Positions 15,001 through 21,000 of a stretch of DNA of 64,000 nt are shown in pieces (the first letter of the stretch is position 1; every line of letters starts with the position of its first letter). The stretch comes from Leptospiraceae bacterium. GTDB taxonomy: Bacteria > Spirochaetota > Leptospiria > Leptospirales > Leptonemataceae. A program made the position numbers. The stretch covers positions 672,001 through 736,000 of the forward strand of contig JAVJNR010000003.1 of the NCBI GenBank assembly GCA_040217195.1. The letters are read 5' to 3'.

Positions 15001-18000
15001 AGCTGAAGTGGCCAGGGATATTGCTATTCGTGAACTCCAGGGAAATTCCAATCCATTCATCTACGATTACAGACCTGAAGCCCAGGTTTCTGAAGCCGGG
15101 CAGCCAATTGATCCGGACTATGAGACTGTAGATGACAAAATGGAGGCGGGAAACTCTAATCGCGGTTCATGCCTTCTTCAATAAAATCAGACTTCTTGAA
15201 CATGCTAAGTAGTTCCACAGATTCCTGAGCCAGAGCCTCCTGCCCCCCTTCCTGGCGGTCTACGATGCAGAGTGCCTGATTCACAACAAATCCGGCCTCC
15301 CTCAGAGCTTTGATCGCCTTAAGGGTGCTACCCCCTGTTGTGATCACATCGTCCAGGGCCAGAACAGTGGCTCCCTTCAAAGTTTCCACTTCGCCTTCGA
15401 TTTGTTTTCCTGTACCGTGTCCCTTGGCCTCCTTTCGCACAATCAAAGGATAGCATGTATGATTTCGCCTTAGACACTCCAGACTCAGGCCGTAGGAAAT
15501 GGGGTCCGCCCCCAGGGTCAGTCCTCCGACGGCAGAAGGTAACCTCATCCGATTATTTCCGAAGAAATCATCATAGATGTTTTCGCATAGCAGGGCAAGC
15601 CTGGATGGATGTAACGTAATCTTCTTGCAATTGAAGTAGTGATGAGACGTTTTGCCTGAAGCTAATGTAATAGGATCCTGCCTGTAAGCATAGGCATGAT
15701 CCTTGATCAGATTATATAAAGAATTCGCATCGGACGCAGAACCGGGAGTCATAGATGATTAAGCTCTGGAAAGCCCCCTTTCAATCAATGGTTTTTTCTG
15801 CCATACTGTTTGGCATTCTGTCAGCATTGTCGCTGGCACCGTTCAATTTTCCTTTAACAACATATCTGGCACTGTGGATATTATTCTATCAGGCACAGCT
15901 ACAGAGCCTTTCGGCAAAGAAGCTTCTATGGTTTGGCTTTATGGCTGCATTCTGGCTCTGTGTTTTTGGATTTTACTGGACCATCCATCTATTCACAGTG
16001 TATGGCGGGCTTCCTGTATATCTTGCAGTCTTTACTTTTATTCCGTATACATTCCTGCTAAATCTGAAGATCCCATTTCTGATGCTGGCTCTGGGAGTGC
16101 TGAATAGGAAAAAATATCGAAAGCTGGGTCTTCCCTCTTTGATTCTGGTGCCAACGGTGGCTGTTACGCTGGACCTGATTTTTCCTCAAGTGTTCAACTG
16201 GTACTGGGGCAACCTGATAGCCGGAAATCCGTATTTCTCTCAGCTTGCGGAATATGTTGGCATACATGGCCTGAGCTTTCTACTATTCTTCCTTTCCTAC
16301 GGTTCATTCAAGTTGCTAAAAGGAAGCCCCTGGAAATTGCAGTACTGGAAACGGTTTCAGAGCATTCAGCGATGGAAGGTTGCCAGCCCAATCGCCCTGG
16401 TGGCTGTTCTGGGGCTGCTTTTTGGAGCCTACAAGAAGTCCAGCGTTGAGGAGTTTCAGGCCGAGCTTCCCCATGTAACGGCTCTTACCATTCAGCCAAA
16501 TGCTCCTCTGGAAAAGGCTGGAGCCCAGGATGTTACCTGGCCTGTGATTCGTAAGCTACTCACAGGAACCATACCGGAAATAGCAAATAAGGCCCAAAAC
16601 GCTGCAAAACAAAAAGAGCTAAAAGTGGATCTGGTGGTTCTTCCTGAGTCCGCCGTGCCTTATTTTACCACCCAGGATAATTTCATCACCAGAAAGCTGT
16701 CTCCTTCCAATCGAATGCCAAGCATCTACAGACCGGAATATGAGGAACTGGTGCTTAAACTGGCCAGGTCATTCGATGCAGAGGTTTTTATTAACCAGAA
16801 TGCCTATGGTGCCAGCCGCGATCCGTCCACGGGAACTCCCAGAATCGATGCCTATAACTCCTCAGCACTGTTTGCACGAAACGGAAAGCGAGCCGGATAT
16901 TACCACAAACAAATCCTAATCGCATTCGGAGAACAGATACCTTACGCAGAATTTCTGGATGACACCGGGTTGATCCAACTGGTTCCGGAAAGCGTTCGAT
17001 ATAGCCGTTTCAGACCAGGGAAAAAATTTACCCTAATTCCCTATCAATCCCCTGCTCTGGAGCCAGAGCAGCCCATCGAAGTAAGCTACGGTTCACTGTC
17101 AGACCCGAAGGCAATCAAAACCCAGGCCGTTCAAGATCTGCGGGAGGAGCTCTCAGAAAAGCAGTTCTTCCCCACCGGTCAGTTCATGCCACTCATCTGT
17201 TACGAAGTATTGAGCCCCAATTATATTCGTGACTATTTCCATGAGAACAATGCGAATCCAGACTTCATGGTAAATATTACCCAGGATAAGTGGTATGGAA
17301 AAACCATCGAAACCTTTCAGCACTTTGAGCTTGGTAGAATTCGAGCCATAGAAACCAGAAGAGCGCTTTTGCGATCCACAAATAGCGGTACTTCAGGCAT
17401 GGTGGATCTGGCAGGTAACTATTCAGAACCCGAAGTAGGGATGCGACTTACAGGTCAGGAAGTGGAGGATTTTCAAATCTTTCGCGTACCTGTGCATCGT
17501 GGCGAGGACACCGTCTACGTAACCTATGGCGATACATGGTTCCTTTTGCCATTTCTGACTCTGGGTGCCTTCTGGTTTGTACGGCGACGCAGATCCAGGG
17601 CAGGATCAGACCGGACTTCCAGGCAGCCCACATCTGCAGTAGGTCCCGCAGACGGAGCTTCAGTCAGGGTTCAAATACCGCGGAAGAAATCTACTCCACG
17701 TCCTCCCACTCGTCGCCGTAATGGAAAGTGAGCTCCTCATCGGGCTCAATGGCGCGAATGCTGTAAAGACGGTTCTCGTCCCATTCTACATTGGGACGGG
17801 AGCTGTGGTTCAGATAACGCAGCTCATTCTTTCCATCAATGCCTCTCCAGGATCCGCTGTCCTGCTCTACCCATAGTACGTAGATATCATCATCCAGGGA
17901 TGGAATCCCTTCATAAGATCCCACATACGCACCCTTTGGAATTCGGCTCCTGGCAAAAGCGCCCATTCCATGAATGCCGCTCTTTTTATTATAAACGTAC

Positions 18001-21000
18001 TTCTCAATGGCCTTGTTCGATCGAGCCGAGAATTTCAGAGGAAAGGGAGTGTCTTTGGGAAGAATCCGAGGCCTTTGGGCAGCCTTCGAATGCTTCTTTT
18101 CTACAGCCCGGTGGCCGGTTACACTACTGGCAGGCTTACTGGCCTTTTTGGGGCTGGCCGGCTTTTTTTTACCAGCCGGCTTTTTCTTCGATACCGGCTT
18201 CTTGTTCGTAGCCGACTTTTTCTTCGATGCCGGTTTTTTCTTACCAGCCGGTGTCTTCTTCGTTGCTGGCTTCTTTACAGTTCTTGATGTGCTATTATTC
18301 TTTTTCTTGGTAGAGGTTTTCTTTTTCATTCGTTACTTCAGGATTGTTTTCTGGCTTTCAGTCGTTCCGCCTGACTTACAATATCCGTTACACGAACACC
18401 GAAGTTCTCGTCAATTACAACAACCTCTCCCTTGGCAATAAGCTTACCGTTTACCAGGAGATCCACAGGCTCACCAGCCAGCTTATCCAGTTCAATAATG
18501 GAGCCTTCACCGAGACTGAGAATTTCCTTGATGTATTTTTTGGTCCGACCCAGCTCCACAGTAAGGGTCATCTCCACATCCATGAGTAAATCCATGTTGG
18601 GAGTAAGTGGGCCCATGCCTGCATTGGAGAGCTGAGGGAAGCCTACATTCTTTAATGGATTTTGTCCCGGCTGCGGTCCCTGAGGCTGATGGCCCATTTC
18701 CGGATTCATCATCTGGGAGCCGGCTGCCGCACGACGAGATCGCTCATGCAGGGATCTGGCCATATCCAGGGGCAGCAATAGCGTTACCCGGGAATCCACT
18801 GTATTTTCGATCTTCAGTGGAATCTGTACTCGAAGTAATCGGCCGCCGCCCACCGGAAATGTGGGTTCATCGGCTACGTTCTTAACATCCAGGCCCAGAG
18901 GGGTTACCGCTTCCCCGGCTTTTACGGAGAACTGATTCACCATAGAAAAGAGCAAGGGGCCCATAGCATCCTTGATGGTGGCTATCTGAGCACTATCCAG
19001 GGTCTCTACGGCTTCTTCCGTGGCATCACCGCCCATAAGAAGAGAGCTAATTTTGCTAGCATCCGAGGTGGACAGAAATAGGGCCACGGAGCCAGATAAG
19101 GCACCGGTGAGATTCTGAGAAAAATATACGTAACCGGATGAGAGTTCCTTTTCTGCCTCTTCGGCGGATCGAACCTCAGCATAGGGATTTCCCAGATTTA
19201 CAGATCTGGAAAGTATCATGGATAAGGATTGAGTCCCGGATCTCAGGCCCTGATAGGCAATGTCTGCCAGGCTCTCCTTTTCCAGAGGAGAGAGATCTTC
19301 GCCCCCACCCTGATTCTGTGCAGGACCAGCCTCCGAGGCCTGACCGGATAAATCATCCGCCCCCTGCAACAAAAGATCTATTTCTTCCTGCGTTAATGAA
19401 CCGTCCGCCATATTGCTACCTGTGGGTATTATCGGACATATTGTCAAATAGAGCCATTAGTTTCTTCCATTGAAAACCCGCAAACTGCGTCCTGCAGTTT
19501 GCGGGAAAGCTTTGCAATGAGCTCCATATGGAGCTCACAGACATCCTGTCTGTAGTGCTCTGCCATGCAGAGCACGGGGGCGGGCTGCGCCCTATACAAA
19601 CTTCCTGTTTGTGCATGATTTCTACGAAATCATGCTGAGTGCCCGCATGGATATAGAATCCGGACATTCGTCCAGGCCGGCCAAGGGTGCGGAAAAGCGA
19701 TGTAAACAGCTCCACCCGGAGCTCATAGACATCCTGTCTGTAGTGCTCTGCATGGCAGAGCACGGGGTGCGGGCTGCGCCCTATACAATCTCCCGGCTCT
19801 CACACTTCCTTTGCTTCGCCGCACTGGGACTTCCTGTCCGGCGTCCTGTTCGCTAAAGCTTCGTGAAGAAGCTTTCATAAGGAGCCATGCTTACAGAAAT
19901 TTTGTCTTTCGTTACGGTCCAGGGTATGAGCTGGCCATCAAATAGGTCCACGCGGCGCTTTAGATCACCGGTAGTCAGAGCCTCGGGCAAAGGTACTTCG
20001 ATTCGGGCCGGTTTGTCCGTGGGATTCCAGATGCCCAGGTATCCTGCAGGATTATAGGCACCCAGAGGAAAGGGATGATCCAATCCAGCCAGAGGAATGG
20101 ATGTGCGACTAGAACACTTTTTATTGATTTCCAGGATCTTATCCAGCCATTGAAACCTGGCTCCGTCTAGAATCTGCAAATCATCGCTGATCAAAATCAT
20201 GCCTCCTACCAGAGTCATGATCACAGCAGATAATCGAATCTGAGCATCCGTCAGTTCTGTTTCCCGGTTTCGCAGCATCAGACAATCCGGATCATTGAGC
20301 CAGAGCCTTTGATGCATAAAAGAGCGAAGCAGGTTGTTTTGTAATGCAGGACGCAATGCAGGAAAATTGCGATCTCCCAGAAGATTTCCCAGGAAAGGCT
20401 TTTCCCACATATGGTTCACATCCATACTAACTCGCTGTCCATCTACAATGCCAATGCTGGGATATAGCGGACAACCACATCCAAGAAGGAAGGTCTTTCT
20501 GCCAGCGGCCTTACGAATCACCTCCAGAGCTTTTCGAAGACGCATGGATCCAGTTGTATCCATAGAATGATAGCGACCACGGAAGTAAGGAGTGAATAGA
20601 AAATCCAGCTTTAGATAAGTAAATCCCTGATCTACAAAGTGCCTGGTTACCCGGGAAATATAATCCAGGAATACTGGATGAGTTACATCCAGTGCATAGG
20701 TTTTGCCACCCCAGTTCGGATTGATTAATGCTCGCACAGGTCGGCCGGATGGGCTTCGCAGCAGTATCTCCGGATGCTTCTTGATTAGATCTGCGTCGGG
20801 CCTGGCAAGGAAGGGAGCGAACCAGACGCCGGCCCTGTAGCCGGATTTCTTGATTTCTTTTACAAGCGGTGCCAGACCATTGGGGAACTTCTCATTTGTG
20901 CTAAGCCAATCTCCAATATTTTTCTGATAACCGTCGTCAATCTGGAAGACATCCATCTTAACTTCCCGTGCTTTCAGAAGCATTAGATTGTGCGAAAGAT

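Follow-up and report, generated by a model that had tools for sequence, protein, structure and literature searches.

The closest described counterparts of the tails considered here are the lysine-repeat (LR) domains of actinobacteria, which occur in Streptomyces TopA and HupS and in mycobacterial HupB and Ku, with lysine modification known in the HupB/HupS tail (PMC5714199, PMC11229371, PMC5676037, PMC3553676); by the Streptomyces count that we draw on, 175 of 554 lysine-repeat proteins are DNA-binding (PMC5714199). The Pseudomonas proteins AlgP and PhaF carry KPAA-repeat domains of variable repeat number, and there an H1-like tail has been proposed as the link that holds cargo other than DNA, namely granules of polyphosphate or PHA, at the nucleoid (PMC9239181). 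On the side of the enzymes, the chlamydial cpnSET and the Methanosarcina Go1-SET are small SET proteins that take a chromatin protein of their own cell, Hc1 and MC1-alpha, respectively, as substrate in vitro (PMC10117894, PMC3980110), while vSET of the chlorella virus PBCV-1 (PDB 1n3j, 3kma) is a minimal SET fold with no post-SET zinc cluster, which has no tail and targets host H3K27.

The gene studied here, at 17691..18329 on the minus strand of the window (the whole stretch of 64,000 nucleotides that was analysed), is an intact open reading frame with a Pfam match and encodes a SET-domain protein of 212 aa with such a tail. The N-terminal tail, residues 1-85 (18075..18329, minus strand), is rich in Lys/Pro/Ala/Ser and contains 30 Lys and, on direct reading of the sequence, four exact KKPxxKK units, the net charge of residues 1-87 being +32. 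The KKPxxK units are encoded by a degenerate 18/36-bp tandem array (18157..18276, no strand assigned), in which TRF finds a 36-bp unit repeated 3.3 times at 72% plus 18-bp units. Both the lysine tail joined to a SET methyltransferase domain and the 36-bp repeat, as described in the survey's finding, are thus borne out. A pre-SET helix predicted from the structure model (residues 102-111, 17997..18026, minus strand) precedes the minimal SET domain (residues 121-205, 17715..17969, minus strand), on which Pfam SET PF00856 scores 42.3 bits against a cut-off of 22.4 (E 1.1e-10).

The core has the motifs GxG, RYLNHSSRPN (171-180) and ELTFHY (199-204), to be compared with RFINHXCXPN and ELXFDY of SET lysine methyltransferases (PMC3980110); the invariant N174, H175, E199 and Y204 are all in place, with the Cys of the motif replaced by Ser. 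Like vSET, the core lacks the post-SET zinc site, and it has no cysteines; residues 113-212 are acidic, with net charge -9. In the AlphaFold model the tail has a pLDDT of about 50 (disordered) and the core mostly 80-98, and the SET fold is confirmed by Foldseek with probability 1.00 against PDB SET domains; vSET is the top fold match by target-normalised TM (0.69) among the matches listed and the best PDB sequence match (E 0.0058, about 25% identity). The NCBIfam search assigned no family to the protein, and the atlas search with it returned generic SET clusters only. From these motifs and this fold we infer a SAM-dependent lysine methyltransferase, predicted to be active on substrates that are presumptive. 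The genome holds two further SET genes, namely an untailed match in the same window (56561..56854, plus strand) and one at C1:118167 fused to AdoMet decarboxylase, making three in total.

Immediately upstream lies fliY, a flagellar switch protein gene (18338..19447, minus strand; NF005995 above cut-off), and the ATG of the SET gene is 8 bases past the fliY stop, a gap from which we read that the two genes probably share a transcript. The convergent lnt, an apolipoprotein N-acyltransferase gene (15755..17731, plus strand) that is given for context only, overlaps the 3' end of the SET gene by 41 bases. The start of the tailed gene and the gene order are identical in all five same-genus genomes in which the N-terminus is visible.

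Judged by its sequence, the protein belongs to a widespread bacterial SET subfamily of ~120 aa. The tailed version is confined to one genus, and the tail is absent in 146 of 150 representatives of relatives; of the distant SET clusters that had been taken as untailed, two, P0023 and P0020, carry basic tails. A tree of 49 rows passing motif filters, with the tailed representatives P0076, P0135 and P0151 left out and the bootstrap not settled, places P0023 outside the genus clade, and P0023 is the only tailed representative shown to be so placed.

The tail is one of many in this genome. The rule of the survey (40-residue windows with at least 30% Lys and at least 60% K+A+P), applied to 23,334 six-frame ORFs, returned 11 matches, which is the number given before; they take in L19 and a SPOR protein, and the formerly listed TfoX and HTH_8 proteins appear only with looser rules. 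The Lys counts in the first 70 and last 60 residues fall within the earlier ranges, and five proteins do have at least 18 Lys in their last 60 residues, as had been said of C-terminal tails on four named proteins, the unnamed one being a 655-aa glycerol-3-phosphate-dehydrogenase-type flavoprotein. With a 30-residue rule of our own, which differs from the published lysine-repeat pattern, 37 of 4,765 crude genes are tailed, versus 1-3 in five within-protein shuffles; the pooled composition of the tails is 32% K, 16% S, 15% A and 8% T.

The carriers include GyrA, TopA (N-terminal tail), LigA, ExoIII, UvrA/B, RuvC, SbcD, CarD, tRNA synthetases such as LeuRS, and L19. With functional classes assigned by hand from Pfam hits, and with clusters sampled from 20 regions, for which the scan used a stricter E-value, as the background, DNA enzymes are over-represented among the tailed proteins (8/36 vs 5-6/118, Fisher p 0.002-0.004), as are DNA-binding proteins (11/36 vs 15/118, p 0.02) and all proteins acting on nucleic acids (16/36 vs 19/118, p 0.001). 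The proposal that the tails sit on DNA-transaction enzymes therefore stands as an enrichment but not as a rule, because 17 of the 37 tails are on metabolic, envelope or signalling proteins. Nor does the "1449-aa GHKL ATPase" (about 1449-1453 aa) count as a DNA enzyme: its sole domain is a C-terminal HATPase_c (1351-1438) preceded by coiled coils, and by our own reading it is of histidine-kinase type. Linker histone H1 is defined by a winged-helix globular domain, for which Pfam gave no match on any tailed protein, and the tails resemble H1 by composition only.

The tails had also been regarded as a grafted module. Pairs of tails have DNA 12-mers in common in 81 of 666 cases, versus 73.6+/-7.4 after codon resampling, and 18-mers in 0 versus 0.9, the longest stretch common to two tails being 16 bases. 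Since no DNA is shared among the tails beyond composition, they would have grown separately rather than been grafted, as far as a k-mer test that is blind to old grafting can tell. Repeats within tails number 37 versus 11+/-6 expected, a signature of slippage. Computed against G000, with a protein-guided alignment that in low-complexity tails pushes the ratio downwards, pN/pS is 0.29-0.34 for the SET tail, 0.17-0.41 for the GyrA tail and 0.03-0.26 for the CarD tail, whose identity among 7 genomes is 88-98%, whereas the ExoIII tail diverges fast, with values up to 0.81. These sequence comparisons support the view that the tails, those of SET, GyrA, ExoIII and CarD included, are genuine coding sequence under purifying selection, and the similar tails reported before on the last three are borne out; given the divergence of ExoIII and the downward bias of the alignment, some tails may be nearly neutral. 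Within the genus the length ranges over 68-105 aa for SET and 63-101 aa for ExoIII, and the net charge of the tails is maintained although the sequence turns over. Miscalled starts were considered as a cause of the tails and rejected, because the starts are conserved across relatives and the tails are under selection.

The tails are family-wide and not genus-specific, contrary to the lineage restriction proposed for them and for the GyrA tail in particular. GyrA tails are graded across the host's family and absent in four Leptospiraceae, and CarD tails are present in most genomes of the family. A protein composed of a basic tail, a transmembrane helix and LysM is found family-wide, its tail being conserved in 18 other genomes of the family and long in G023; such a protein could form a link between nucleoid and cell wall. 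Note also that a motif scan and the PDB revealed a tailless HLp-type histone of 61 aa in the host's family, while Pfam searches with the histone families PF00808 and PF09123, which are too blunt, found none in 5 genomes including one Leptospiraceae. Leptospira has an HLp-type histone and no tail excess.

The explanation that we consider probable is that an actinobacterial-type lysine-repeat habit has arisen in a new lineage, the Leptospirales, with tails that tether electrostatically and with the SET enzyme as one recipient among others. Based on this explanation, disordered polycation tails would arise in one protein after another, as slippage extends short basic ends or loops; selection would then retain them, and they would act as sequence-independent tethers. 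Most plausibly they bind DNA, by analogy with the lysine repeats of Streptomyces TopA and mycobacterial HupB (PMC5714199, PMC5676037). For GyrA, TopA, LigA, ExoIII, UvrA/B, RuvC, SbcD and CarD the target would be DNA, giving longer dwell time and more processivity; for the tRNA synthetases and L19 it would be RNA; and for metabolic and membrane proteins it may be DNA, polyphosphate or anionic lipid, the polyanion of the metabolic enzymes being a guess. A member of the SET subfamily would first have taken its place downstream of fliY, in one sub-clade, and only later, in one genus, have acquired a tail. The tail most likely parks the enzyme on the nucleoid or other polyanions, where the acidic core probably accepts basic peptides, so that the enzyme would be likely to methylate its own tail and basic proteins nearby as the occasion arises; the tails themselves would not depend on the enzyme.

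By analogy, the tails would work like LR domains without being members by descent. In both cases a single lineage has Lys/Ala/Pro-rich disordered tails on many proteins that are unrelated to one another, and DNA-binding proteins are over-represented yet a minority (11/37 here, as against the 175 of 554 reported for Streptomyces). By contrast, the present host is a spirochaete of 48.6% GC rather than a GC-rich actinobacterium; many tails here are N-terminal or internal and richer in Ser/Thr; the LR tail of TopA is C-terminal with terminal acidic residues, whereas the tail here has no acidic end; and the SET enzyme is itself a recipient. The text of the supplements of PMC6821194 and PMC5714199, in which proteins may stand as accessions or pictures, contains no mention of Leptospira, Leptonema or SET. 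AlgP and PhaF are, in what is described of them, one or two dedicated proteins, in contrast to dozens of recipients here. Activity is shown for cpnSET and Hc1, which are a separate enzyme and an H1-like protein, whereas in the present protein an enzyme of predicted activity carries the H1-like segment within its own chain; moreover, the chlamydial SET enzymes are described as secreted effectors, unlike our reading.

It was proposed in the survey that the tailed SET protein is a dedicated writer of methyl marks on the tails; by marking those of the DNA enzymes it would adjust how firmly these enzymes bind the nucleoid. The intact catalytic motifs, the acidic core and the precedent of cpnSET acting on Hc1 (PMC10117894) are consistent with this, as is the high tail load in the genus with the tailed enzyme (35-63 motif matches vs 3-6 in controls, genomes at least 77% complete), and the tail-rich G015 and G024 also hold a subfamily member, which is untailed. 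However, CarD has Lys-rich extensions in G008, G020 and G023, and the LysM protein its long tail in G023, where the PF00856 search found no match (83, 92 and 91% complete). Tail-rich G011, G012, G016 and G017 gave no match to the SET core, while G007, G013 and G021 have the core subfamily and only a small motif excess, so that among the genomes compared, which are incomplete, tail load does not co-vary with the subfamily. Together with the scarcity of tailed representatives, the two further SET genes, and the fact that no genomic link between SET and any tailed gene was seen, this makes a dedicated writer unlikely. We regard as similarly doubtful an "inverted" histone code, in which the histone is tailless and the modifiable tails are on enzymes competing with it for DNA and on the LysM protein linking nucleoid and wall, with a nucleoid-parked SET enzyme methylating those tails and its own.

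It is quite unlikely, too, that a flagellar or motor protein is the substrate and the tail incidental, as the place behind fliY hints. The SET gene does follow fliY directly on the same strand, with the 8-base gap, in G000, G001-G005, G007 and G015, but this adjacency is found in only 7 of 25 evaluable relatives, so the pointer seen in it by the survey is weak; in most others the gene after fliY is, by our own reading of the sequence, FliO-like. No flagellar neighbour of subfamily members was recognised in G013, G021, G024 or 11 loci titled as other phyla, and the adjacency looks like a single insertion at a rearrangement point that was passed down among kin. That many tails, the SET tail included, have no specific role and are low-complexity sequence whose growth is tolerated agrees with the slippage signature, with the length spread of the SET and ExoIII tails within one genus and with the tails on unrelated metabolic enzymes; we nevertheless hold it to be improbable, as the conservation of the CarD and LysM-protein tails, the persistence of net charge and the enrichment of DNA enzymes argue against it. 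It is very improbable that the SET protein is a nucleomodulin, exported to a eukaryotic host to methylate its histones with the tail as nuclear-localisation signal, since, although several bacterial SET proteins are described as acting so (PMC10117894) and the tail has Lys runs and the gene lies within the presumed flagellar transcript, the protein has no signal peptide or hydrophobic stretch, GyrA, LeuRS and other essential enzymes of the cytoplasm bear tails of the same kind, and there is no evidence of a host.

With the lysine-repeat explanation, a habit described mainly for GC-rich Actinobacteria is now seen in a spirochaete family of moderate GC. If the reading as a code were true, there would be a bacterial chromatin-marking system beside a real histone, which the present data do not show. 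As the sister family has no tail excess, a comparison between the two families offers GyrA, CarD and ExoIII each in a naturally tailed and an untailed form, so that the effect of a tail can be measured. Moreover, a SET enzyme that bears its own candidate substrate would offer a cheap test of nucleoid-tail methylation in free-living bacteria.

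Applying the rule of the survey's finding (40-residue windows with at least 30% Lys and at least 60% K+A+P), we likewise obtain 11 ORFs, the number of tailed proteins reported there. A 30-residue rule picks out 37 of the 4,765 genes of a crude set, which is imperfect in that the histone gene discussed below was dropped from it through overlap, versus 1–3 in five shuffles; the segment is N-terminal in 14, C-terminal in 16 and internal in 7, and 3 further segments lie in ORFs discarded for overlap. With classes assigned by hand from Pfam matches (n = 37), the recipients comprise eight DNA enzymes (ExoIII, TopA, SbcD, LigA, UvrA, UvrB, RuvC and GyrA), three transcription-related proteins (CarD, HTH_8 and TfoX_N), five RNA or translation proteins (LeuRS, ValRS, PheT, L19 and a pseudouridine synthase), the SET protein, three proteins without a family and 17 others, namely GlpD-type and NDH-2-type flavoproteins, ManC, LpxB, a hexapeptide transferase, a GH1 hydrolase, PBP1a, a LysM membrane protein, an ABC ATPase, an alpha/beta hydrolase, a class I methyltransferase, M23, an SspB-like protein, DUF2062, DUF4870, CxxCxxCC and a 1453-aa kinase-like protein. 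Against a background of 118 genes (150–1500 aa, from 20 evenly spaced regions), and with a 107-aa tailed protein excluded as outside this length range, DNA enzymes make up 8 of 36 tailed versus 5–6 of 118 background genes (p 0.002–0.004), and nucleic-acid-acting proteins 16 of 36 versus 19 of 118 (p 0.001). The earlier placing of the tails on DNA-transaction enzymes thus stands as a genuine enrichment, yet most recipients are not DNA enzymes. Note that in LeuRS, ValRS and PheT (C1:374141, C2:7509 and C4:359393) the segments are Lys-rich internal insertions rather than end tails, and that in the 1453-aa coiled-coil protein (C5:176462–180823, minus strand) the Lys tail lies at the N-terminus and a kinase-type HATPase_c domain at the C-terminus. 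Two small proteins that match no Pfam family (C10:50229–50552, minus strand; C5:145512–146057, plus strand), the C-terminal third to half of which is Lys/Ala repeat, are candidate Hc1/Hc2-like nucleoid proteins.

Lysine repeats of Streptomyces TopA are reported to stabilise the TopA–DNA complex and to confer processivity, with 175 of 554 Streptomyces lysine-repeat proteins being DNA-binding (PMC5714199); HupB reportedly requires its PAKK/KAAK tail to stay on the nucleoid (PMC5676037), and acetylation or methylation is described for tails of the HupB/Lys-repeat type (PMC11229371). Lys-rich low-complexity regions are described, across over 1,500 proteomes of prokaryotes and phages, as enriched on DNA-binding proteins and also as present on L19 (PMC6821194), and polyphosphate granules as spaced by the KPAA tail of AlgP (PMC9239181). 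Because the published lysine-repeat and KPAA tails act so, the tails here are probably polyanion tethers too; the SET protein would be one more tail recipient, and its own tail would be its nearest likely substrate.

The tails had been taken for a grafted module, which the DNA does not bear out: 12-mers are common to 81 of 666 tail pairs, versus 73.6 ± 7.4 for the same peptides with resampled codons, 18-mers to 0 versus 0.9, and the longest stretch common to two tails is 16 bases. Repeats within tails do exceed the control (37 versus 11 ± 6). Nor is the GyrA tail confined to the genus, an impression that arose because alignment fails on low-complexity sequence. It has 58–62 aa with 15–17 Lys in all five genus genomes read, 87 aa with 23 Lys in G009 and 42 aa with 10 Lys in G011, both outside the genus, and 20–31 aa with 6–8 Lys in six further genomes; a basic tail is absent in seven, no tail is found in four of four genomes of the sister family Leptospiraceae, and G003, G006, G010, G018 and G019 were unreadable. 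This series of lengths shows growth. The CarD tail has 44–47 aa with 17–19 Lys in 7/7 genus genomes; of 16 further genomes of the family, 10 show at least 10 Lys there. Relative to the source genome, pN/pS, for which synonymous sites are near saturation and tail alignments uncertain, is 0.03–0.26 (CarD), 0.17–0.41 (GyrA), 0.29–0.34 (SET) and 0.24–0.81 (ExoIII) in the tails and 0.01–0.17 in the cores. The tails are under purifying selection, which supports the called start sites.

The SET-protein ORF (212 codons; window 17691–18329, minus strand) starts 8 bases past the fliY stop, and the 3' end of the convergent lnt overlaps it by 41 bases; over this SET 3' end Lnt carries a genus-conserved basic cytoplasmic extension at its C-terminus (window 17640–17731, plus strand). 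Residues 1–85, with 30 Lys, are predicted to be disordered (pLDDT about 50), and the confident predicted fold covers residues 101–210, with the SET domain placed by Pfam at 121–205 and the same fold assigned by Foldseek. The published motifs RFINHXCXPN and ELXFDY (PMC3980110) have the counterparts RYLNHSSRPN and ELTFHY, and N174, H175, E199 and Y204 are invariant in 25/25 aligned relatives. The protein has no cysteine and therefore no post-SET zinc site, as is also the case for vSET, its best PDB sequence match. Phe202 lies at what we take to be the Phe/Tyr switch position and would permit multiple methylation. The net charge of −9 in residues 113–212 would be compatible with a basic-peptide substrate.

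A wider pairing of SET with fliY had been described; within the first six ORFs downstream, we find SET directly after fliY in 7 of the 25 relatives with enough DNA there (G001–G005, G007 and G015; G006, G019 and G020 are too short), the others usually having a FliO-like gene, assigned by reading. The wider pairing is not reproduced here; the adjacency looks like a single inherited insertion.

It was also proposed that the SET protein is the writer that methylates the tails. The intact, acidic SET core is in line with this, as is the methylation of chlamydial Hc1 by cpnSET, cited second-hand from a review (PMC10117894). However, no coupling of tail load with the SET subfamily is seen. Only the genus has the tailed form (6/6 sequences with the N-terminus in view, G000–G005); untailed members occur in G007, G013, G015, G021 and G024 and under records titled Acidobacteria, Polyangiales, Acidimicrobiales, Gammaproteobacteria and Planctomycetota. 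The named records closest to the SET protein of the source genome are, by title, Leptonemataceae, Leptospiraceae or Spirochaetaceae MAGs. The tail rule picks out 4 of the best 150 SET representatives, one from the source genus; P0023, a representative that a rough tree places apart from the genus clade, has gained a very similar tail. Matches to a DNA pattern for KK[SPTA][SPTA]KK, versus its reversed control, number 50/3 in the source genome and 35–63 versus 3–6 in G001–G005, and outside the genus 58/12 (G012), 60/11 (G015), 44/5 (G024), 23/5 (G011), 19/2 (G016) and 11/2 (G017), with no clear excess in four Leptospiraceae; the subfamily is present in two of these six tail-rich non-genus genomes versus three of ten without clear excess. 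Moreover, G008, G020 and G023 (83, 92 and 91% complete) give no PF00856 match despite Lys-rich CarD extensions, and the source genome has three SET genes. Because the genomes are kin and partly incomplete MAGs, the result is one of no coupling, not of absent methylation. The claim of a dedicated writer is unsupported.

It is noted that the window holds a second, untailed SET gene (56561–56854, plus strand), and that at C1:118095–118997 (plus strand; L201:2764–3666) a gene joins a SET domain to an AdoMet-decarboxylase domain and is preceded by what is probably a second AdoMet-decarboxylase gene (assigned by reading); several family genomes have similar open frames of 300–335 aa. A 183-aa protein from a different genus (locus L029, G012:C682) is unrelated and matches the SET query through its Lys/Ala/Pro tail alone.

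A 61-aa tailless protein at C1:415674–415859 (plus strand; L251:2175–2360), missed by two Pfam histone families, matches PDB 9qt0 (E 5.8e-19), the HLp of Leptospira perolatii (PMC12701072), and judged by this match is an HLp-type bacterial histone; histones are reported throughout the Leptospirales (PMC10627809). A further protein (C2:551932–552660, plus strand; locus L049) joins an H1-like N-terminal tail (61 aa, 23 Lys) to a transmembrane helix near residue 97 and a C-terminal LysM domain. Among 21 loci examined, this architecture is retained in 18 other family genomes and absent from three Leptospiraceae loci, and 22 of 23 database homologues have the tail by the tail rule used for the SET representatives, the remaining one being an N-terminally cut fragment. 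The protein is a candidate nucleoid-to-peptidoglycan tether, and as a dedicated nucleoid tether it is more plausible than the SET tail. Together with the tailless histone it keeps alive a bolder and quite unlikely reading, an inverted histone code in which the histone lacks a tail, the competing enzymes carry them and SET methylates them.

In the literature searched, which mostly excludes subscription journals, we found no paper describing lysine-rich tails from this family, a SET domain joined to an H1-like tail or a tail-transmembrane-LysM protein. We thus regard the tails as a real feature of the family, of a kind already known, with the lineage and the SET–tail fusion being new.
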